From assembly GCF_003945235.1 (NCBI RefSeq), contig NZ_RSDW01000001.1, positions 120,001 through 152,000 on the forward strand: a stretch of DNA of 32,000 bases, given 5' to 3'. Numbering within the stretch: the stretch's first letter is position 1; the number at the start of each line of letters is the position of its first letter. The notes under the pieces were generated by a model. It did not search any database, was not told the origin of the DNA, and was given only the letters and a program-made list of their open reading frames with translations. The position numbers and the translations under genes were made by a program. This DNA is from Edaphobacter aggregans. Its GTDB lineage: Bacteria; Acidobacteriota; Terriglobia; Terriglobales; Acidobacteriaceae. Shown here one piece after another: positions 3,835 to 25,391 of this stretch.

Positions 3835-3899
3835 GCCCACTGTAACCATTATTGTAACCATTGCGTTCCCTTTTCTCTTTTCAAAAACACACCTCTACT

Positions 3900-4679
3900 G
3901 GGTGGTCGGACGGCGGCCTGGAGATAGGGACGCTCCAGGCCATCCTGAAACGCTCCGGCCAAGGAGCGCGGCTGCAACCGGATGTGAAGATGCTGCCGAC
4001 ACGGGAAGACGTGGGACGGGCGATTACCGCGGAAGAGGAGCGGCCCTCTTACAGGCTTGCGGGAAGTCCCGTTCTCGTTCGCTCGTTCCGCTTGTGACGC
4101 TGGCAATCGAGACGGGAGCGCGGTTTGGAGTGGTTCGGACGCTGCAATGGGGGAGCGTTGATTTCGAGAACCGTTGCCTCCGTTGGGGGAGGGACAAGAT
4201 GGCTTCCGGCACAGGCCGAATCCTCCGCTAAACCAGTGTGCGATGGCCTCCCTTGGCTTCTGGGCAACTCGTTTCCCGGAGCCCAAGGACAGGGGACACT
4301 ACGTCTTCCCCTCGGAGGCGTTACGGGGCCGCTGGTGACAAGTTCTGTGCTAAGGCATACGACCCAGACCCAACCAAGCCAATCGGGAGCATCAAGGAAT
4401 CCGGGGATGCTACAAAGTTGAGAGCAGCGCGGATCTTAGAGGGAGACGTATTCCACGGGGAAGAGTGTTCCGCAACCCTGCCGATTCCATGACCTACGGC
4501 ACACCGCCGTGTCGCGGATGCTGACTGCCGGGATTCCTATCGCCAAAGTTGTAAAGGTCGGCGGATGGAGCACGGCGACAATGGTACGAATGGCTGGCCG
4601 TTATGGGTACTTCCCTTTGAATGAGTTGCGGGGTGCTGTGGAAAGCATCAGCACAACAATTCAAACGGAGTACCCGTAA
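3900..4679 (+). pseudogene. tyrosine recombinase / phage-type integrase, 5'-truncated with multiple frameshifts
   Basis: Integrase-like sequence is spread over all three + frames. Frame 0: DVKMLPTREDVGRAITAEEE. Frame 2: ALLQACGKSRSRSLVPLVTLAIETGARFGVVRTLQWGSVDFENRCLRWGRDK. Frame 1: HYVFPSEA. Frame 2: YGAAGDKFCAKAYDPDPTKPIGSIKE..KLRAA. Frame 0: CRFHDLRHTAVSRMLTAGIPIAKVVKVGGWSTATMVRMAGRYGY, stop at 4677..4679. Frame changes fall near 4040, 4220, 4318 and 4440. The gene lies directly 3' of tRNA-Leu. Confidence 0.85.
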
Positions 4680-4736
4680 ATTCACCGCTCTCGGAAGCGG
4701 CTGCCGGAGAGGGTCGCCCTAACTGATTTGAAAGAA

Positions 4737-4785
4737 TGGCTCCTGAGGTAGGACTCGAACCCTACAACCCTTCGGTTAACAGCCG
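4737..4785 (-). pseudogene. tRNA-Asn(GUU)-like 3' fragment (anticodon loop to CCA), possible att remnant
   Basis: The reverse complement reads CGGCTGTTAACCGAAGGGTTGTAGGGTTCGAGTCCTACCTCAGGAGCCA. It contains the anticodon loop CTGTTAA, T arm GTAGG/CCTAC with a TTCGAG-type loop (one extra nt) and acceptor 3' strand CTCAGGA-G-CCA. I could not find a D arm or a matching 5' acceptor strand upstream, so it is not a complete tRNA. Confidence 0.5.
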
Positions 4786-5019
4786 TCGAGCTGGCGGCTT
4801 GCCGGGTACTATCTGTCGCTATAAGCTGCTATTCATCCGATATTTACGGCCGTTTGTTGATAATGTTCTTTACTACTCATGCTGCCTGTTTTACTACCAG
4901 TTCCTGAGTTTTGTGCGCTTCATTGATCTCACAAATGTAAGAATTTTCGAAGTCGCTGGCCTCGATGGCCTCGCTCCTGTGCCGATGCCCCGGCGGCTAA
5001 TACCCAGCGACCAATAGTT

Positions 5020-5214
5020 GTCGCACAAGCCGACGAGGAACGGATTGAAACCTTGGTCAAAGCGGTCCGTGCTCGCAATAACGCGCTCCTGCTTGGAGCG
5101 GACGGACCACAGCTTGATGTCGAGCTTACTATCGTCGAAATCAACTGATTCAAGCGCAAGACTCAGGATCCGGCCGCCGATCCGCATTGTCGAAGTACCT
5201 GTGAACCTCTAGCG
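5020..5214 (-). pseudogene. tyrosine recombinase internal fragment
   Basis: The reverse-strand frame reads (stop)RFTGTSTMRIGGRILSLALESVDFDDSKLDIKLWSVRSKQERVI. This matches the integrase pattern TG.R.GE.L.L....VDFD...L.I....K..R.I, but no N- or C-terminal domains are present (part of track ORF 4894..5187). Confidence 0.5.
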
Positions 5215-5292
5215 CGCGTACCGCGATTTTTGGCATTTTCTCTAACATTCTGCCTAGTGGTCAAAGTTTTTGCGACGGGTCATGATGGACGA

Positions 5293-6027
5293 ATGAGCCT
5301 CTCTCCTATCGATGCGCTCCCACTGTTCTTCGCCATGCTTCTTCTAATTGAGCTGGGTCGAAGGTTGCATGCCCGATCTCCCCATCAGAAGTCCAACTCT
5401 GCTATCGAAGGCGCGATCTTCGGGCTTTTCGGTCTGCTTCTTGCCTTCACCTTTTCCGGAGCTATCGCCCGCTACGACACCCACCGCAAGCTTGTGATTG
5501 AAGAGGTCAACGATATCGGCACTGCATACCTCCGTCTCGACCTCCTGCCGAGAGAACTCCAACCCGAATTTCGAGATAAGTTCCGCGATTATGTCACCTC
5601 CCGACTTGACCGTTTCGATTCTCCGACGAATATGCCCGTCAGCGAAGAAACCGTTCGTCTTCAAAAGATCATTTGGGCAAAGGCAATCGCGGCAACTACA
5701 ACCAGCGACGGTCACTCGGAGGGAGGAAGGCTGCTTCTCCCTGCCCTGAATCAAATGTTCGAGATCACCATTACTCGCAAGAACGCCTTCGATATGCACC
5801 CACCCCTGATTGTTTACCTACTACTTTTTGCACTCAGCTGCGGCTGCGCTCTTTTTGCCGGTTACAACATGACTGACCCCCACCGAAATTTGCTTCATAT
5901 CATTGCCTTCGCCGCTGTCTTTTCTCTGACCATTTATGCCACTCTCGAGATCGAATATCCTCGCAAGGGCCTGATCCGCCTCTCGAACACTGATCAAGCG
6001 TTCATTGATCTCCGTAACTCGATGTAG
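5293..6027 (+). CDS. DUF4239-like (bestrophin-like) membrane protein
   Basis: Track ORF 5230..6027 uses a TTG start; ATG 5293 (MSLSPIDALPLFFAMLLLIELGRRL) is more likely. The family-like core is IEGAIFGLFGLLLAFTFSGAIARYDTHRKLVIEEVNDIGTAYLRLDLLP, with two further C-terminal TM helices. Confidence 0.7.
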   Translation: MSLSPIDALPLFFAMLLLIELGRRLHARSPHQKSNSAIEGAIFGLFGLLLAFTFSGAIARYDTHRKLVIEEVNDIGTAYLRLDLLPRELQPEFRDKFRDYVTSRLDRFDSPTNMPVSEETVRLQKIIWAKAIAATTTSDGHSEGGRLLLPALNQMFEITITRKNAFDMHPPLIVYLLLFALSCGCALFAGYNMTDPHRNLLHIIAFAAVFSLTIYATLEIEYPRKGLIRLSNTDQAFIDLRNSM

Positions 6028-6170
6028 CGCCCTGTCGGCCCGCCGGGAAATGACTTGAGATTCCAATCTGCGATATTAGATACATCTTTAGATCACCCAA
6101 CTTAGCGCAACGTTTTGTTTTCTATGGCGTGTGAACGTATCGGTGTTGGCAGATTACGCCACAACGTCCG

Positions 6171-17300: not shown

Positions 17301-18593
17301 ATACCATTTCGCATGGCGAGATCAGACTACTCTCCGCGCAGCTCTGAAGCGAAGGTCTTCCACATTGAGCTCTCCGATCTCCATGTTTCGAAAGAAGACT
17401 CTGTAAAACCCTGGTGTGATCAACTCGAATGCCAACTCTTCGAAGCGGAATACCTCGCTGATGAAGACTCTGTTTTTGTGCCAGCTGATGTCGCCGCTAT
17501 TGTTCACCCGTCGCAGAAGGAGACCCTTGCGATACGTGAACTCCGGCAACTTGCGTGGCAGTCGGACGGAACTGGCGTGATAGAGACTCGCTGGGACTTG
17601 GTTGTTCAGGCCCTCATGCGGGCGCTCGTTATTGAACACATAGCGAAAGTTATCGAAGCGGCTCTGTTGTGCACGAAGGGATGCCGCAGGCGGTTTCGTC
17701 GTGTCCTCCTTCAGCGTGCGGTGCATCCGCTCATGGCGACCGTTTTGTTGCGGCCGACCTGCCTGAATGCGCTCATGAACAATCCCCAGCTTCATCCAGC
17801 CGAGTGAGAGCTTTGACAGCCCCAATAGCCCGGTGCCCGCAAACGGTGCGCCGTTGTCGGTTCTGATCCGTGCTGGCACTCCGTACTCCCGCATTGCTGC
17901 TTCGCAGATTGCCCGGACTTGGCTGAGGTCCATACGCGAGACGATCTGGCAACGAATCAAATAACGGCTGTGCGCGTCTGTTATGGTGAACGGATCGCAG
18001 CGCTTGCCGTCACCAGTGGCGAAGTAGCCTTTGAAATCCATGCACCATAGCTGATTCGGACCAGTAACCATAGAGAACGGCTCTGAGCATGGCGTGGTTC
18101 GTTTTCTTTTCTTCTGCGGACTGGACAAGCCCGCTCGGCTCAAGATGTTGCCAAATGTGCTGGCCGCAGGCCACACCACGTCCGGCTGTAGCATCTCCAG
18201 CCTTGCCTTAAGCTTCCGCGCGCCCCAGGACGGATGCTTGGCCCGAAGCACGAGGATGGTGTTCTCGATTGGCTCGAGCGTCGCGTGCGAGCAACCATGC
18301 AGGCGGCGACTGCGATCCACGAGTCCTTCTGGCCCGGTCTCGTTGTAGCGATTGATCCAACGGTAGCCCGTTGGGCGGGAGATTCCATACTCACGGCACA
18401 GGTCCGCTACCGACATCTCTTCCTTCTGATAACTGGACAGAAACTGCAAACGTTGATCCAAGATCCGACTCTCCTTCCAGGGCATACAACATCGTCGTGC
18501 GTGCCCAATGCTGAGGAATTGTCGCGTCGCGCTTCGCTGTAAACCATGTCTCAGGGTCTGTTTTGTAACCGAAGTGCTAAGTACGCTAAGGGG
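17301..18593 (-). mobile_element. IS481-family insertion sequence (apparently complete transposase; ends only approximately placed)
   Basis: The right boundary is where homology with the 10648..11088 fragment stops (…GTACGCTAAGGGG, 18593). The left boundary must lie between the tetR stop (17300) and the transposase stop (17322). I could not identify terminal inverted repeats by eye. Confidence 0.6.
17322..18485 (-). CDS. IS481-family DDE transposase (HTH plus rve integrase core)
   Basis: Track ORF 17322..18617; the likely start is ATG 18485 (MPWKESRILDQRLQFL). It has the HTH region ISRPTGYRWINRYNETGPEGL and the DDE core LWCMDFKGYF...TDNGAPF...GRPQQNGRHERMHRTLK...FNNERPHEGL. Confidence 0.9.
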   Translation of the reverse strand: MPWKESRILDQRLQFLSSYQKEEMSVADLCREYGISRPTGYRWINRYNETGPEGLVDRSRRLHGCSHATLEPIENTILVLRAKHPSWGARKLKARLEMLQPDVVWPAASTFGNILSRAGLSSPQKKRKRTTPCSEPFSMVTGPNQLWCMDFKGYFATGDGKRCDPFTITDAHSRYLIRCQIVSRMDLSQVRAICEAAMREYGVPARIRTDNGAPFAGTGLLGLSKLSLGWMKLGIVHERIQAGRPQQNGRHERMHRTLKEDTTKPPAASLRAQQSRFDNFRYVFNNERPHEGLNNQVPASLYHASSVRLPRKLPEFTYRKGLLLRRVNNSGDISWHKNRVFISEVFRFEELAFELITPGFYRVFFRNMEIGELNVEDLRFRAARRVV

Positions 18594-18826
18594 CGCTGCC
18601 CCGATCGCGCGGCGCAAGGGGTCTCCCCAATCTTCCGCGCTGCGCTTGTGCAGACCTCCGCTGCGCTTCGCCCTTTCCGTTCCGCCTGCGGCTCCCTCTC
18701 CAAGGGTGGGAGATCCCCCTCCCCGTTGCGCCTTGCTACCCCCGCCTTCGCCAGGAGGCGTTCGGCATGTAGGTACATGCCACGCATGGCATGAAAAACA
18801 ACGGCCAAGGCCAAGGAAGAAACACC

Positions 18827-19874
18827 ATGAAGACCACCACCAGCACCGTCACCCCCATCAGCGAAAACTTGACGAGTGACTCGTCCTGAAGTCAACAATT
18901 GACGAAAAAATCCTTCGGCGTTCAAAATCTTTCTCTTCCCATAGAACGGAATCAAGCGTTACAGAAACGAGTGATGACGGGTTTGTCGAGACTTCAGAGC
19001 ACCGCAAATTTGTCGAGTTCAGCGACGCTTGCAAGGCCTACCGGTATATCGGCCTGTGCTACGGACCACCTGGTGTGGGCAAAACGCTTTCAGCTCGACG
19101 GTACAGTCGCGCAGACTCGTTGGCTGACTACGATCGATGGAGCGAAGCAACGATGCCTTCCATTATGTTCGACACGGTCATGAATACCGCTGAGGTCGTC
19201 AACACGCCCTCGAGAGTCGCTTCGGACTTAGGCAGAGCAAGAGAAAAGTTGACCGGAATTGCCGTGCGGCCAATCGAGCGGAAGCTCGTACTGTACTCGA
19301 AACGATCAGGCTTCGAGATGAGGCAAGGCGGCGCGAGATCCTCGATAGACCAGGGTGCTCGCCCTGTGATCGGCCGGCTGTGGACCCCATCTATTTTCAG
19401 ACGTACCAGTACTATCAGGCTCGCCAGAAGGAGGTTTCGGACCCAACAACCCTCATCGTCGTCGACGAGACCGACCGACTGCTGATGAACAGCCTAGAAC
19501 AAGTGCGCTCCGTCTTCGACAGCGGCGACATGGGCATGATCCTGATCGGTATGCCCGGCATCGAGAAGCGCATTGCTCGCTTTCTTCAACTTTACTCGCG
19601 TATCGGCTTCGTTCATGAGTTTCGGCCGCTCGGGGCTGCCGAGGTCCAAGAGCTTCTTGAACGATGCTGGACACCACCCGGCGTGACCTTACCTGACAGC
19701 GGCTTCACCCCCGAAGTCGTAGCTCGTCTAGTTAGAATGACCGGCGGCAACTTGCGACTTCTCACACGGCTGCTCACTCAGGTGGAACGCGTCCTAGGCG
19801 TCAACGACACCCAGGTAATCTCGGTCGAGATCGTCGAAGCAGCGCGGGACAGCCTTGTCATCGGCCAAGCCTGA
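18827..19874 (+). pseudogene. TniB/MuB-like AAA+ transposition ATPase, frameshifted
   Basis: The start ATG 18827 follows AAGGAAG (MKTTTSTVTPISENLTSDSS, stop at 18887). The P-loop part is in another frame from 18880 (DDGFVETSEHRKFVEFSDACKAYRYIGLCYGPPGVGKTLSARRYS). A further shift near 19280 leads to a third frame (EARTVLETIRLRDEARRREIL...DPTTLIVVDETDRLLMNSLEQVRSVFDSGDMGMILIGMPGIEKRIARF.QLYSRIGFVHEFRPL), stop at 19872..19874. Walker A (GPPGVGKT) and Walker B (LIVVDETD) are both present. Confidence 0.75.
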
Positions 19875-20112: not shown

Positions 20113-20988
20113 TTATCTCGGGATAAGGCGATGATCACTCACCGACGTCGTCAAAATTTGACTTTCACCAACTGCTCCCATCAGCGCTGGAGGACGCATG
20201 TCGCCAATCCGCAAGAGAAGATCTTTGGGACTAAACCCACTGAGTTTTTGAAAGTCTTTAATCATGTGCGTCTGATCGTAGTATCCAAACTCATTCGCGA
20301 GATTAGCCCAGCCGGTATCCTGGCGATGGATTCTCATGTCAAGCGCAGCCTGAAATCGCGCTACTCGCGAATACAGTTTGGGACTCAAACCAATTTCACT
20401 CAGGAAATTGCGCTCAAACTGCCGCAGTCCCAGGGACAACTGATTAGCAACGTGATCCAATCGCAAAGTACCCTTCGCTCGAGATATATAGAGTGCTGCA
20501 TTCATGATTGAGCTCTTTCTTCCAGCATTCAGCGCTTTCGGGAGCAGATAAGCTTCTGCAAATTTGACTCGCTCAGCAAACGTAACGGCCTCGGCCAGCC
20601 TGTTCCATAGTTGATCAGCCTCGCGACCCAGCACGGCATATCCCTCGTAGTGTTGATTCACGAAAGAATCCATAGGCAATCCAAAGAGTTGCCAGAAAGC
20701 CAGGGGCTGGAAGAATATCGCGAAACTTTCCACCCCGCCATAGAGATGCATATTGAACGGGCGATAAGCACTTGCCCCAACGATGCTAAGCCGATTGAGC
20801 GTGAATCGCCTAGCATCTCCTAATTCTCCAATAGGGTGGATGCCGAATTCAAAGTTAAATATTTGCTCCAGACATGCCGGCACAGGCTCTACAAGAGCCG
20901 CACTGTCTTGCTCTAGCCTTCGCTGCGCAAAGGCACAAACGTAGTTCTTCAATTCAAGACGAGGAGAAGCTGAATAGGTTTCATGCAC
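20113..20988 (-). CDS. AraC/XylS-family transcriptional regulator
   Basis: 291 aa. The C-terminal double HTH is LRLDHVANQLSLGLRQFERNFLSEIGLSPKLYSRVARFQAAL...WANLANEFGYYDQTHMIKDFQKLSGFSP. The N-terminal domain is uncharacterised. The gene is visibly more AT-rich than the flanking core genes. Confidence 0.9.
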   Translation of the reverse strand: MHETYSASPRLELKNYVCAFAQRRLEQDSAALVEPVPACLEQIFNFEFGIHPIGELGDARRFTLNRLSIVGASAYRPFNMHLYGGVESFAIFFQPLAFWQLFGLPMDSFVNQHYEGYAVLGREADQLWNRLAEAVTFAERVKFAEAYLLPKALNAGRKSSIMNAALYISRAKGTLRLDHVANQLSLGLRQFERNFLSEIGLSPKLYSRVARFQAALDMRIHRQDTGWANLANEFGYYDQTHMIKDFQKLSGFSPKDLLLRIGDMRPPALMGAVGESQILTTSVSDHRLIPR

Positions 20989-21250
20989 GGAGATTTGCCC
21001 TCAAAACCCCTGGATCTCTTGCGCAACGAAAGACAAATGGCTTTTGCTGGAATCGGTTTATCCGAGCGTCAGGCGTAACGCAGAACTCTTCTTAAATTGT
21101 GACGGGGCCGCAAATGCCGGGAGGACATAATCCTCTCATATTTTTTACGGAATGTCGCGTTTTTACTATACCGTCGCGGATGTTTTAGGTATTTTCGACG
21201 AGATGAGAACCACCAATGTATAAATCCATACCTAGGAAAGAGGAAACTGT

Positions 21251-21862
21251 ATGGCATCTACGCAAGCTGATTGGCGTTTCTGTTCGAAGTGCTTCAGTCT
21301 ATGGTTTAATGGGCAGCCGACGAACGGTGTCTGTGCGGCGGGTGGTGAGCACACCGATGTAGCAAGCAACGCGGGTGCCTCTACACCATCCGCGGCACCT
21401 CAAGGAGGCCCGACCAGCGGCAACTATATTCTACCCTTCATTCATACTGGGACAAATACGCAATCAACACAAGATAATTGGCGTTTCTGTTCAAAGTGCT
21501 TCAGTCTATGGTTTAATGGGCAGCCGACGAACGGTGTCTGTGCGGCGGGTGGTGTGCACACCGATCGAGAAAGCAACGCTGGTGCCTCTACGCCACCCGA
21601 GACACCTCAAGGAGGCCCGACCAGCGGCAACTATATTCTACCCTTCATTCATACTGGGAAAAATATCCAATCAACACAAGATAATTGGCGTTTCTGTTCA
21701 AAGTGCTTCAGTCTATGGTTTAACGGGCAGCCGACGAACGGTGTCTGCGCGGCGGGTGGTGTGCACACCGATGTAGCAAGCAGCGCCGGTGCCTCTACAC
21801 CACTCGAGGCACCTCAAGGAGGCCCGACCAGCGGCAACTATATTTTGCCCCTCGTTTTTTGA
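21251..21862 (+). CDS. uncharacterised protein made of three tandem 69-aa Cys modules (WRFCSKCFSLWFNGQPTNGVCAAGG.H)
   Basis: 203 aa. AGAGGAAA lies upstream of the ATG and a strong terminator lies downstream. There is no signal peptide. Each repeat has C-x2-C-x13-C-x5-H followed by a P/S/T/A-rich loop and QGGPTSGNYILPFIHTG. Confidence 0.8.
   Translation: MASTQADWRFCSKCFSLWFNGQPTNGVCAAGGEHTDVASNAGASTPSAAPQGGPTSGNYILPFIHTGTNTQSTQDNWRFCSKCFSLWFNGQPTNGVCAAGGVHTDRESNAGASTPPETPQGGPTSGNYILPFIHTGKNIQSTQDNWRFCSKCFSLWFNGQPTNGVCAAGGVHTDVASSAGASTPLEAPQGGPTSGNYILPLVF
21271..21859 (+). repeat. 207-bp tandem repeat, 2.85 copies (21271, 21478, 21685)
   Basis: TTGGCGTTTCTGTTC.AAGTGCTTCAGTCTATGGTTTAA.GGGCAGCCGACGAACGGTGTCTG recurs with an exact 207-bp period. 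By eye, copies 1 and 2 differ at roughly 15 positions. Confidence 0.95.
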
Positions 21863-21878
21863 AAAATGCAATCGCACA

Positions 21879-21913
21879 GACCGCCCGGCGATATCGCCGG
21901 GCGGTCCTTTTGG
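21879..21913 (+). terminator. rho-independent terminator
   Basis: GACCGCCCGGCG-ATAT-CGCCGGGCGGTC forms a perfect 12-bp stem (21879..21906) followed by CTTTTGG. Confidence 0.8.
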
Positions 21914-22040
21914 CAGGATATGCGAGATCGGTCCCGGGAAAATCTTGTTGGCTGGCTGTGGTTTGTGGAATTGTTTGTCGTAGATTTGTCGCAGCCGAGC
22001 CTTTGCTGCGATCCGTAAGCGTAAGAACAGCGACTATCCC

Positions 22041-22310
22041 TCACAAACCTAAGTTGTCATTCACAGCCACGGCGATTTTCTGTTCAGAACCGAGGTAACG
22101 CTCAGTAGTTTGAATTGAGCTGTGCCCAAGAAGAAATTTGATCTGTTCGAGGTCTCCTCCGTTCTTGCGGCAAAGCTTCGCACAGGTACGGCGGAGATCA
22201 TGAGCGCCGAAGTGCTCGATCCCAATTTGTACTCTTTCGCTCGCTCGCGAGCTCAGGGTATAGCCCGCACCCCACCTGAATCTCAGCTCAGCGATATCAA
22301 GTTCGCCCAA
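22041..22310 (-). pseudogene. tyrosine recombinase C-terminal fragment
   Basis: The 89-aa ORF ends with IEHFGAHDLRRTCAKLCRKNGGDLEQIKFLLGHSSIQTTERYLG (the HxLRxT...LGH...T..Y catalytic box). The whole N-terminal two-thirds of an integrase is missing. Confidence 0.8.
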
Positions 22311-22479
22311 CTCGATGTCGCGGAAGTAGACTCTGAAGAAGTCTTCACCAACATCGATCCAGGCTACTCAGAAAACCGCAGCGAAGAAGCTGACGACTAA
22401 GAAGGAAGTTGCAGCCTAACCCGCAGCGGGAGTCAGCTATCCGGCTCCCGCTCTTTTCTTTAAGGAGGGAGATCATGTT

Positions 22480-22656
22480 TCAGTTCAACTACAACTCAAG
22501 ATCGTCGAGTGGGTGAAGGCGAAGTGTGAACGCGTCCACGTTACAACCCGGAGCAGCCGAATCCACCAAACCACCTGCGTCACCCAAGCGATGGAAGCTG
22601 GTGTGACCGATCACGTCTGGTCAATTGCGGAGATTGTCGGGCTGCTCTCCCGATAG
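22480..22656 (+). pseudogene. transposase C-terminal tail remnant
   Basis: The frame ending at TAG 22654..22656 reads ...RIHQTTCVTQAMEAGVTDHVWSIAEIVGLLSR. This resembles the conserved C-terminal tail (..R.HQTLR.TPAMEAG.TDHVWS.EE...LL) seen on several IS transposases. Nothing upstream of it is recognisable. Confidence 0.4.
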
Positions 22657-22956
22657 TCTTACCTTGCACTCCGCTAGGAGGCTTCGCGACTGCCGCCGCT
22701 GTGCATGTATTTTGGGTGGCTCTCTCGGTATCGTCGCCGCTCTTCTACATTCGCTCGCCATTTCCAGCCAAGCCAGAAGAAGAATGAGGCAAACAGGATA
22801 AGGAACCCCACGAGGATTGCGAGGGCGACCATGGCCTATATTACTTCTCCATTAGCGCAGATTCAAACTGACCCATTACCGGTTCCCTGAGTGACTGGCC
22901 GGGGCAGAATCGTGTGCGATCATGGTTGGCATTCCGTCGCACTGCGAGGAGCGAGT

Positions 22957-25391
22957 ATGCCGACGTTTCTTCAGGATTTCCTTTACTCTCTGCGGCAACT
23001 CATCAAACATCCAAGGTTCGCTGTGACGGCGATTCTCTCCCTGGCCCTGGGCATCGGTGCAACCGTCTCCGTCTTCAGCGTCATTTACGGCGTGCTGATG
23101 CATCCCTTTCCGTATGCGAATGTCGGCCGGCTCGCCAACTTGAGCGTCAGCGAGCCGCGCGGCGACATCTCCGATGTCTGGTTTTCGGGGTCGCAGTTGC
23201 GAGAACTGCGCAACTTGAACACCTTCGCGAGCATCGCAACCTGGAGCGCGCGCGATTTGATCGTCACCGGACGCGACATACCCGAAGGTGTCATTGCTTT
23301 CTTCGGAATCGGCGAGACTTTCCCGACGCTGGGCGTTCCCCCTCTGCTCGGCCGCAATCTCGGCCCCTCCGATTCCCCGGACGGTCGGGAGCCGCAACCG
23401 GTCGTGATGCTCCACTACCGGTTCTGGCAACGCCATTTCAACGGCGACCCCACCGTCGTCGGCAAGATCCTCGAGCTGGATCACAAGCAGTACACCATCA
23501 TTGGCGTCACCCGTCCCAACTTCACGTGGGGCTGGGGCGCGGACGTGTATCTGCCACAGGAAATTGGTAACGCCCAAGGTGGCGGGGTTGTCGTGAAACT
23601 GCGTCCAGGAATTAGCCTCGCCGCCGCAGATGCTGAAATGGAACCGCTCCTCGATCAGTTCGCGAAAGAACAGCCGCACGACTATCCGCCGAAATTCAAG
23701 GTCGACATCCGACCGCTTCCATACGAGACCACGCGCAATATGGGCTCCACACTGTACCTTCTTTTTGCTGCAGTCGGCATGTTGTTGGCGATCGGCTGCA
23801 GCAATGTCTCGATCCTGCTACTTGCCCGCGGTGCGGCGCGGCAGCATGAGTTTGCTGTGCGATCCGCGGTGGGCGCCAGCAGCCTGCGGATTGTGCGGCA
23901 GTTGCTGACTGAGTCGCTTCTACTGACTCTCACCGGAACGGTTCTCGGCATTGTGCTGGCCCACCAACTGCTAGCTCTGATCGTTGCGTGGCTGCCGTCC
24001 CACGGATGCGGCCGGATGCGGCCATTCGCATTAATGCACCGGTGCTCCTTTTCAGCGCAGCTCTCGCCCTGGTAACCTCGGTGATCTTTGGACTAGCTCC
24101 TGCTTTGCAGATGGCGAAACCGGAGATCACTCAAGTTATGCAGTCCAGCTCACAGAGAACGATGGGCAGTGCGCACGGTCGCCGACTGTATGGCACACTG
24201 GTCGCCGCACAGATTGCGTTGACGCTGGTGCTGTTGACCGCTGCGGGCGCGGCAACCCAGCACTTCGTGCGCCTAATGCGCGTACCGCTCGGCTACGATC
24301 CTCGCAATGTCGTCGCGGTCGGTATTCCGCTGCATGACAACACGTATATGACCTGGCAGGCGCGGACCAGCTATCTCGAGCAGCTGCGCGCCAGTATTGC
24401 TGCGTTACCCGACGTTGTCTCTGCGTCCATCGAAACGGGTGCCACCCCGCCAAGCAGCGGTTGGGATCAGCGGTTCGAACTGCTCGGCAAACCAGCGCCC
24501 TCGGAAGCGCAGACCGCCCGAATTAATCTCGTCGATCCCGACTATTTTCGTACTTTGCAGACGCCCCTCATAGAGGGACGTATCTGGACTACCGCCGAAG
24601 TTGCCCGCGCGGCTTCCTTCGTCCTGGTCAATCAAACCTTCGCCAAGGACTACTACCCCAACGGCGACGTCGTCGGCCATTCCCTCAAACTCCCGCTCCT
24701 CCAAAGCAGGCCGCCCAACGTCCTGGCTGCTCCCGGCGCCGACGGCTGGATGCAGGTGATTGGCGTCATGGCTGATCTCCGGAACAACGGCCTTGCTCGG
24801 CCGGTCCGTCCCGCGGTGTTTGCCCCGTACAGCACGCAGCTATGGATGAGCGCAGAAATCCTTGTTCGCAGCCGCGTCCCGCCGGAAACTATTCTTCACA
24901 GCATCCGCAGGCAGATCGCAGCGGTCAATCCCGACCAGCAAACTTTTAACACCATCGGCGACCTCGAAACATGGATCAGGGACGAGCCAGAATGGGCAAG
25001 AGGAAGACTGATCTCCGGCCTCTTTGCTGGATTTTCGATTCTGGCTCTCGTTCTGTCAGCGGTCGGATTGTATAGCGTCGTTTCTTACTCCGTCGTCCAG
25101 CGAACCAATGAAGTCGGCATTCGCATAGCTCTGGGCGCGGGACGCTCTCATGTTCTCAGAATCGTGATGGCTTCGGCGGCTAGGAGCGTTGGCCTTGGCA
25201 TTGCTGCCGGACTTGCCTTGAGCCTCGGTCTGAATCGCGTCATATTGAGTTGGGTGGGAAGTACCGACCATCATCCGCTGGTGGTGCTGAGCGTTTCGTT
25301 TCTGATCCTCGTCGTTGCAGCGATGGCCTGCCTTGTGCCGGCGCGCAGGGCGTTGGCTATCGATCCTATGGCCGCTCTACGTTGTGAATGA
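22957..25391 (+). pseudogene. ADOP-family (MacB-like, duplicated FtsX) ABC transporter permease, split by a frameshift near 24000-24015
   Basis: Track ORFs 22891..24075 and 23988..25391 are the two halves of one gene. The likely start is ATG 22957 (MPTFLQDFLYSLRQLIKHPRFAVTAILSLALGIGATVSVFSV). The first half ends ...LIVAWLPSH and then goes out of frame. The second frame continues PDAAIRINAPVLLFSAALALVTSVIFGLAPAL and ends with the typical PARRALAIDPMAALRCE. This could also be a sequencing error. Confidence 0.85.

Follow-up and report, generated by a model that had tools for sequence, protein, structure and literature searches.

What kind of protein is encoded by a bacterial gene that is built from three tandem copies of one sequence block and whose product resembles no named family? 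This question is raised by an open reading frame (ORF) at positions 21251..21862 (+, stop codon included) of the 32-kb stretch of Edaphobacter aggregans DNA analysed here (referred to as the window). The ORF list assigns to it a protein of 203 amino acids (aa), which is identical to E. aggregans EDE15_0113 (exact match to RSL14657.1) and has 124 homologues. We favour, with a probability of roughly 55%, the view that it is a stand-alone member of an unnamed repeat-domain family, whose three units would form a metal-stabilised, lectin-like binding module, and that the window gene represents a mobile copy homogenised by recombination.

A three-unit repeat and its family

The repetitive organisation of the protein, recognised in an earlier reading of the sequence (the original prediction), is real. 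Tandem Repeats Finder reports the EDE15_0113 array as the sole tandem array of the window, extending from 21256 to 21844 with a period of 207, 2.8 copies, 92% matches and a score of 1024. Over the 162 nt common to all units, the pairwise identity amounts to 93.2-93.8%, and a self-BLAST aligns at 92% across 394 bp. The unit boundaries need to be corrected: the in-frame starts lie at 21269, 21476 and 21683 rather than at 21271, 21478 and 21685, and only the first two units (21269..21475 and 21476..21682, both +) have the length of 69 aa that had been ascribed to all three. Unit 1, reaching from DWRFC to QSTQ, contains the predicted metal ligands C11, C14, C28 and H34, as assigned by in-frame dissection and the (near-)invariance of the corresponding alignment columns; their counterparts are C80, C83, C97 and H103 in unit 2 and C149, C152, C166 and H172 in unit 3. 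The latter (21683..21859, +) comprises just 59 aa and ends after its last β-strand, NYILPLVF. Throughout the family, the third unit always ends 12-19 aa past its His, so that the domain naturally terminates at this point, which explains the apparent truncation of the third copy.

Similar modules do occur in hypothetical proteins of soil bacteria, as stated in the original prediction. Using the single sequence, a word-seeded search retrieved the 124 homologues mentioned above. A profile built from 86 of them and scored against 1.84 billion representative proteins detected 3,265 clusters (at 50% identity) with E <= 1e-3 and 1,378 with E <= 1e-30, including members of more than 1,000 aa in which as many as seven segments match. 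Acidobacteria, Actinobacteria (Streptomyces, Lentzea, Acidothermaceae) and Nostoc are among the named sources. The units follow the consensus Q-x-x-W-R-x-C-x-K-C-x-x-L-F-x-x-G-x(4)-G-x-C-[PA]-A-G-G-x-H-x(3-6)-[FY]-x-L, in which the Trp, the three Cys and the His residue are invariant or nearly so in every unit of the 86 aligned homologues. The C-x2-C-x13-C-x5-H module, described as invariant among the three window units, is thus conserved family-wide. The window protein has kept all 15 W/C/C/C/H residues at the family spacing as well as the terminal hydrophobic strand. Units usually measure 47-49 aa; those of the window protein reach 69 aa through an insertion of ~20 aa.

Within the databases searched, this large family is without a name, a curated model, a structure or a literature record, in agreement with the original statement that no family could be named. 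In Pfam, nothing exceeded the cut-offs, the best score being obtained for Zn_Ribbon_1 (23.5 bits against a cut-off of 25, summed over the three knuckles), and a single 69-aa unit gave no match at all. NCBIfam returned nothing for the window protein, PHROGs and PADLOC nothing meaningful, and searches of the literature by motif, by accession and by the combination of zinc ribbon, Tat and lectin nothing relevant. The claim of novelty has therefore not been overturned by a match of the unit to a characterised domain in Pfam, NCBIfam or the PDB. Sequence and profile searches of the PDB produced two candidates, a BED finger (E = 0.04) and ribosomal protein S23 (E = 0.41), both of which were judged to be chance matches. 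DUF7685 (PF24734) and DUF7128 (PF23447) align marginally with the region of the W-x-x-C-x2-C knuckle in a small number of homologues (P0005, 25.7 bits; P0088, 28.9 bits), but they cover ~20 residues of one knuckle, and neither describes the three-unit domain; the window protein itself scores 12.1 bits against DUF7685 (E = 0.19, cut-off 27) and does not match DUF7128.

The original prediction regarded each unit as an independent small knuckle. Two lines of evidence indicate instead that three units make up one compact domain. First, the unit counts of 268 family proteins peak at 3 (95 proteins), 6 (48), 9 (21) and 12 (8). Second, AlphaFold2 models the window protein (86-sequence alignment) with a predicted template modelling score (pTM) of 0.78 and a predicted local distance difference test score (pLDDT) of 90-95 in the conserved blocks. 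For a triplet of short units (P0014, residues 3-144, 48-sequence alignment), it reaches a mean pLDDT of 96.8 and a pTM of 0.90, with three strands per unit. Foldseek returned no relative of either model from the PDB (best E 6.6 for the window protein and 1.1 for the triplet; TM score <= 0.24) and no relative of the triplet from BFVD (best E 1.2). The pTM values and the strand pattern further suggest a tetrahedral Cys3-His geometry and closure of the domain by the last strand. As to the ligand, the invariant Cys3-His set suggests Zn2+. With three Cys per unit, and hence nine per protein, their number is odd, so that they cannot all form disulfides, which likewise suggests a metal. Each unit would accordingly resemble a three-stranded zinc ribbon, in which a β-hairpin bears the W-R-x-C-x2-C knuckle, a Gly-rich loop (G-x-C-[AP]-A-G-G-x-H) supplies the third Cys and the His, and a long β-strand (G-N-Y-I-L-P) comes next. 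One Zn2+ would probably be held per unit through Cys3-His, and three consecutive units would pack into one globular domain.

Comparison with known systems helps to delimit this proposal. Zinc ribbons (Zn_Ribbon_1, PF13240; DZR, PF12773; clan Zn_Beta_Ribbon) likewise contain a β-hairpin with C-x2-C and two more ligands ~13 residues downstream, both AlphaFold2 models predict three short strands per unit, and the weak Pfam matches to the window protein all fall on the C-x2-C knuckle. However, the second half-site of the window units is a C-x5-H motif in a Gly-rich G-x-C-A-A-G-G-x-H loop rather than a second C-x2-C, and the units occur in threes that are predicted to form a single domain instead of independent fingers. 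Moreover, classical zinc ribbons are found in the cytoplasm in association with nucleic acids or ribosomes, whereas the repeat family is mostly extracytoplasmic. The β-trefoil (QxW)3 lectins of the ricin B type and other carbohydrate-binding modules with three-fold pseudo-symmetry are comparable in that three repeats of ~45-50 aa make up one domain of ~145 aa, each repeat opens with a conserved Gln and Trp (Q-x-x-W in the family), and the domain is used as an accessory on secreted hydrolases and beside lectin propellers. Differences lie in the spacing (Q-x-x-W-R-x-C, not Q-x-W), in the Cys3-His set of each repeat and in the three strands per repeat predicted by the family model, as opposed to four (12 in all) in the trefoil. 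No β-trefoil was returned by Foldseek from the PDB, and no Ricin-type Pfam match was obtained for the window protein or 234 homologues. The resemblance lies in usage and architecture rather than in family membership.

Architectures and location of the domain

The proteins that contain the domain provide clues to its site of action. Judged by motif and hydrophobicity, the N-termini of the 268 family proteins include 48 that resemble twin-arginine translocation (Tat) signals (e.g. SNRRAFL, SRRAWL, SRRTFF) and 14 that resemble general secretory (Sec) signals or transmembrane (TM) segments; 55 proteins resemble the window protein in beginning directly with the domain. Among the 148 larger proteins, Pfam identifies a series of peptidase partners, namely Peptidase_M23 (11 cases), M36, astacin, reprolysin-like, M11, pro-kumamolisin and C70. 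Further partners are lectin or propeller domains (Tachylectin, Tectonin, DUF346, DUF4185, Laminin_G_3) as well as LGFP, CARDB and tyrosinase. A C-terminal Peptidase_C70-like domain is also present in L015, a relative that has three units and belongs to the long-unit subfamily. Enzymes of the M23 type act on peptidoglycan as endopeptidases and frequently bear wall-targeting modules. Given this habit, and given that all partners belong to secreted or surface contexts, guilt by association suggests that the domain has a role in binding or targeting.

In five homologues (P0015, P0016, P0021, P0025 and P0061), an N-terminal TIR_2 domain precedes a single hydrophobic helix with Arg residues on its TIR-facing flank, after which come the units (two in P0061, three in the others). 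These TIR-TM proteins have a receptor-like one-pass layout and show weak PADLOC similarity to ThsB-type TIR; defence-system partner genes were not seen beside P0016 (locus L007, 6001-7065). Animal Toll-like receptors also combine a TIR domain, one membrane helix and an extracellular repeat domain, but the ectodomain of the homologues is unrelated to leucine-rich repeats, their TIR domain is N-terminal, which reverses the order, and the window protein has neither a TIR domain nor a membrane helix.

According to the reading that we favour, the domain would be an accessory module that is exported or displayed outside the cytoplasm, on peptidoglycan peptidases, other proteases and lectin propellers, and that is joined to a cytoplasmic TIR domain by one membrane helix in the TIR fusions. 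Throughout the family, its role may be to bind or recognise a ligand that belongs to the cell envelope or resembles a glycan.

The window protein itself is devoid of a signal peptide, as originally stated, and also of a membrane segment and of a Tat motif (S/T-R-R-x-F-L-K plus hydrophobic region). Its N-terminus (MASTQADWRFC) leaves 10 residues before the first Cys, and a longer upstream extension beyond the ATG start is impossible. This finding speaks for a different, though improbable, interpretation, in which the protein is a cytoplasmic zinc finger that serves as a nucleic-acid- or protein-binding adaptor or as a partner of the neighbouring AraC-family regulator, with the signal-less subfamily being intracellular. 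The 55 family members that begin directly with the domain fit this idea, as do the Cys3-His sites, which are typical of the reducing cytoplasm, the invariable pairing with a divergent AraC gene in close relatives and the weak, sub-threshold resemblance to zinc ribbons and the BED finger. However, every informative architecture in the family, be it export signals, TIR-TM fusions, secreted peptidases or lectins, is extracytoplasmic, and DNA- or RNA-binding partner domains were not found in the family. In addition, all zinc-finger matches stay below the cut-off, and the AraC pairing is limited to one mobile element and absent from distant homologues.

Several other features of family members and of the window touch on domain architecture. 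A recurrent C-terminal extension of ~160-200 aa with the motif ...FTFSGHAHDSG..., a hydrophobic tail and no Pfam match is shared by P0014, P0028, P0030, P0045, P0053 and P0075; locus L024 contains two genes with an extension of this type in tandem (3881-4927 and 5001-6050), each with three units. The closest three-unit relative outside Edaphobacter, P0002 (locus L005, 6001-6738), has 72-aa units and a strongly acidic tail (DDDDDGWGDDDDDGDDGGGDDG), and its gene is followed on the same strand by large 2-oxoglutarate (2OG)-Fe(II) oxygenase/AMMECR1 and Asp/Arg-hydroxylase-like genes. The window also contains a 1,399-aa ORF (11727-15926, -) whose N-terminal region forms a Tectonin domain (E = 1.5e-10) and whose long C-terminal portion includes hydrophobic stretches and has no Pfam match. 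The Cys3-His module was looked for in this protein and is absent; Tectonin is a fusion partner elsewhere.

Homogenisation, recombination and mobility

The high similarity of the three window units is a secondary feature. When the 285 units of the 95 three-unit proteins were compared, the best match in another protein lay at the same position for 59, 60 and 45 of the 95 units (~32 expected by chance), and only 47 of the 285 had their nearest relative in their own protein. The units are hence position-specific family-wide, which indicates that the triplication is ancestral. With respect to inter-unit identity, the window protein ranks third of the 95 (family median 0.45), and each of its three units is most similar to unit 2 of the nearest outgroups P0013, P0018 and P0020, stand-alone, signal-less proteins with differentiated units and no long loop. 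One unit type has therefore overwritten the others or been re-amplified in the Edaphobacter lineage. Silent sites have diverged by 6-8% between the units, which places the amplification, or the latest round of homogenisation, in the not very recent past. The initial proposal of recent amplification or concerted evolution can thus be made more precise: the evidence supports a secondary homogenisation of the units by intragenic recombination that is still ongoing.

Signs of this activity come from related alleles. The paralogue EDE15_4226, located on the same 6.15-Mb contig, also has 203 aa and is 97% identical; its six differences from EDE15_0113 all fall in the loops discussed below, five of them in the loop of unit 1, which carries the unit-2 loop variant. 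In line with the suggestion that copy number might vary, three 134-aa proteins in the same 90% cluster are shorter by exactly one unit. These 2-unit alleles are found on five contigs from at least four (soil) metagenome samples, and their flanking DNA is nearly the same as in the window, with a gap of exactly 207 bp. Their loops are new mosaics, with, for instance, PPAAP in unit 1 and Glu for Val before the His of the last unit, so that they are not simple collapses of the window sequence, though a collapse during short-read assembly is conceivable. Finally, the four-gamete test is positive for site 27 against sites 31, 34, 41 and 43.

Most of the variation is confined to one segment of each unit, the loop formed by unit codons 27-43 (21347..21397, 21554..21604 and 21761..21811, all +). 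It lies within the P/S/T/A-rich insertion of ~20 aa directly after the His, which is missing from most family members and modelled as disordered (pLDDT < 50). Across seven unit sequences, taken from the window and two related alleles, there are 15 variable nucleotides, 11 in the 51 loop positions and 4 in the 111 positions elsewhere (Fisher p = 6e-4). The ratio of non-synonymous to synonymous polymorphism (pN/pS) is 1.49 in the loop and 0.11 in the core, at a similar silent divergence (0.078 in the loop, 0.059 elsewhere). The core is under functional constraint and purifying selection. The contention that the differences are mostly non-synonymous and cluster in one loop thus stands. The notion of a hypervariable loop is weaker than it might seem; the loop pN/pS rests on about five substitutions and is indistinguishable from 1, so that relaxed constraint accounts for this value as well as diversifying selection does.

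The same considerations bear on a further, still less probable explanation, namely that the gene encodes a variable surface or secreted protein, such as an adhesin or a decoy in host-phage or inter-bacterial conflict, whose loops form a contact surface under diversifying selection, with repeat recombination generating diversity. The contrast in pN/pS between loop and core, the mosaic loop variants with their positive four-gamete test, the variable copy number, the location on a mobile element and the fusion of relatives to TIR, a typical conflict-system domain, all speak in its favour. Nevertheless, the extent of variation is modest, since 12 units show only ~seven amino-acid sites that vary and three to four types of loop, and the low complexity of the loop, its predicted disorder and its absence from most of the family make relaxed constraint a sufficient cause. 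Moreover, the module goes unrecognised by PADLOC and PHROGs, and the protein has no export signal.

To return to the favoured reading, the Edaphobacter lineage would have gained a flexible P/S/T/A-rich loop of ~20 aa after each His, and three anciently differentiated units would have been overwritten by one type via unequal crossing-over and gene conversion. The same recombination may still shuffle the loop variants and give rise to 2-unit and 3-unit alleles.

The mobility of the gene is evident from its surroundings. A locus search with the single protein yielded only 3 genome loci and 10 metagenome loci, one of the latter a close allele. The contigs with 2-unit alleles (including L008-L010) show the following order: a gene for an AAA_22 ATPase (L008 only), a divergent AraC gene (286 aa), the repeat gene, a convergent tyrosine recombinase gene (308 aa) and a YhcG_C/DUF1016 nuclease gene; L008 additionally contains genes for a single-stranded DNA-binding protein (SSB) and a second integrase nearby. 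The window retains the divergent AraC-family regulator (DUF6597 + HTH_18; 20113..20988, -), which keeps its place beside the repeat gene in all close relatives, together with an 89-aa remnant of the recombinase of the element (22041..22310, -), which is intact in L008-L010, and a truncated AAA_22 ATPase gene (19380..19874, +), whose product has 323 aa in the intact element of L008. Further away lies an IS481-type transposase gene (HTH + rve; 17322..18617, -). The depiction of the locus as mobile-element debris next to a divergent AraC gene is hence accurate. Homology to the 2-unit contigs is restricted to 20122-22229 and ends inside the integrase. The repeat gene and the AraC gene are cargo of an integrase-bearing integrative element that has decayed in the window, which accounts for the two copies in one genome; the gene would move together with its divergent regulator. 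A plasmid search of the locus gave no match. Between the window and L008/L010, identity is only about 88% for the AraC gene but 97.5-98.4% for the repeat gene with its 3' flank, an uneven divergence that suggests recombination between elements.

The gene is equipped with its own putative expression signals. A purine-rich, Shine-Dalgarno-like stretch read from the sequence (AGGAAAGAGGA, 21234..21244, +), identical in the 2-unit alleles, includes GAGGA at 21240-21244, 6 nt before the ATG, in keeping with the ribosome-binding site noted originally. Downstream, a terminator-like hairpin followed by C and TTTT (21879..21911, +) is conserved in L008-L010. The perfect 12-bp stem of this hairpin is confirmed (21879-21906, 4-nt loop, dG -28.7 kcal/mol, z = -4.9); with only four T after it, a function as a terminator is plausible. 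An Rfam scan of the locus returned this palindromic hairpin alone, at noise level.

Two last explanations are highly improbable. A multi-core precursor of ribosomally synthesised and post-translationally modified peptides (RiPPs), in which each of several cassettes would consist of a variable core between conserved flanks, to be excised and modified by enzymes encoded elsewhere, might be suspected from a small Cys-containing gene of tandem cassettes with a variable segment and from a Pkinase + LANC_like, lanthipeptide-synthetase-like gene of L008 (1-1481, -) that lies at a distance of 6.5 kb from the 2-unit allele. The latter, however, lies outside the L008 stretch homologous to the window and is probably unrelated, adjacent modifying enzymes, proteases or exporters are absent from the window, L009 and L010, and the conserved part is predicted with high confidence to fold as a globular domain, which is found inside large multidomain enzymes. 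That the triplication is an assembly artefact, as might be feared for 207-bp tandem repeats, which are hard to assemble (metagenome contig L012, matching 21673-23848 at 99.8%, begins inside the array), or that the ORF is a decaying pseudogene like the truncated integrase and AAA_22 genes around it, is countered by an intact frame, a core pN/pS of 0.11, the retention of all ligand residues and the recovery of a 203-aa, 3-unit gene from three independent sources (the window, EDE15_4226 and a contig from the Joint Genome Institute (JGI) soil metagenome 3300050821, where an identical protein is encoded with the same AraC gene on one side and the same integrase fragment on the other).

Two observations concern the remainder of the window. 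The transposase segment 18154-18593 (440 bp) is partially copied at 10648-11087 (89% identical), forming a second fragmentary insertion. Furthermore, two ORFs at 22891-24075 and 23988-25391 (both +) overlap by 88 nt and each comprise MacB_PCD and FtsX domains, apparently representing either one long, frameshift-split duplicated ATP-binding cassette (ABC) permease gene or two adjacent genes.

The favoured reading and its significance

A number of points weigh against the interpretation of the window protein as a member of an extracytoplasmic three-unit domain family. The Tat assignment of the homologues rests on motifs, for which curated NCBIfam models gave no confirmation, and the window protein lacks both a signal peptide and a membrane segment. 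The fusion partners suggest binding but not what is bound. The long-unit subfamily, to which the window protein belongs, includes complete two-unit genes, encoding 265 aa in L002 and 371 aa in L014, both with a C-terminal extension, and 143 aa in P0003, so that the three-unit domain cannot be strictly obligatory there. The 2-unit alleles come from metagenome assemblies, and short-read assembly can collapse tandem repeats. Finally, a shared operon partner was sought in nine distant-homologue loci and none was found; an extracytoplasmic function (ECF) sigma factor gene lies nearby in two of them, which was judged uninformative. Both the control of the repeat gene by the AraC regulator and the site of action of the signal-less copy are points that we infer.

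It is possible to go one step further, albeit tentatively, and with less confidence than we place in the reading itself. The three-unit Cys3-His domain might represent a new fold and a new class of recognition domain in bacteria, an extracytoplasmic, metal-stabilised, lectin-like module with pseudo-threefold symmetry that directs secreted cell-wall hydrolases towards their substrates and, as the ligand-sensing ectodomain of a one-pass receptor, switches the cytoplasmic TIR domain of the TIR-TM fusions. The Edaphobacter gene might then provide a soluble form that is mobile and coupled to a regulator, with repeat recombination diversifying the loops that face the ligand.

The window gene opens up a domain family that abounds in Acidobacteria, Actinobacteria and Cyanobacteria of the soil, comprises more than 3,000 clusters at 50% identity and is well defined by its sequence motif, by units that tend to come in threes and by a structure that is predicted with very high confidence and has no relative in the PDB. 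The Edaphobacter alleles offer a compact natural case of concerted evolution and copy-number change in a coding repeat. If our reading is correct, the family would furnish a new binding domain for cell-wall-active enzymes and, in its TIR fusions, a candidate bacterial surface receptor that may signal through TIR.

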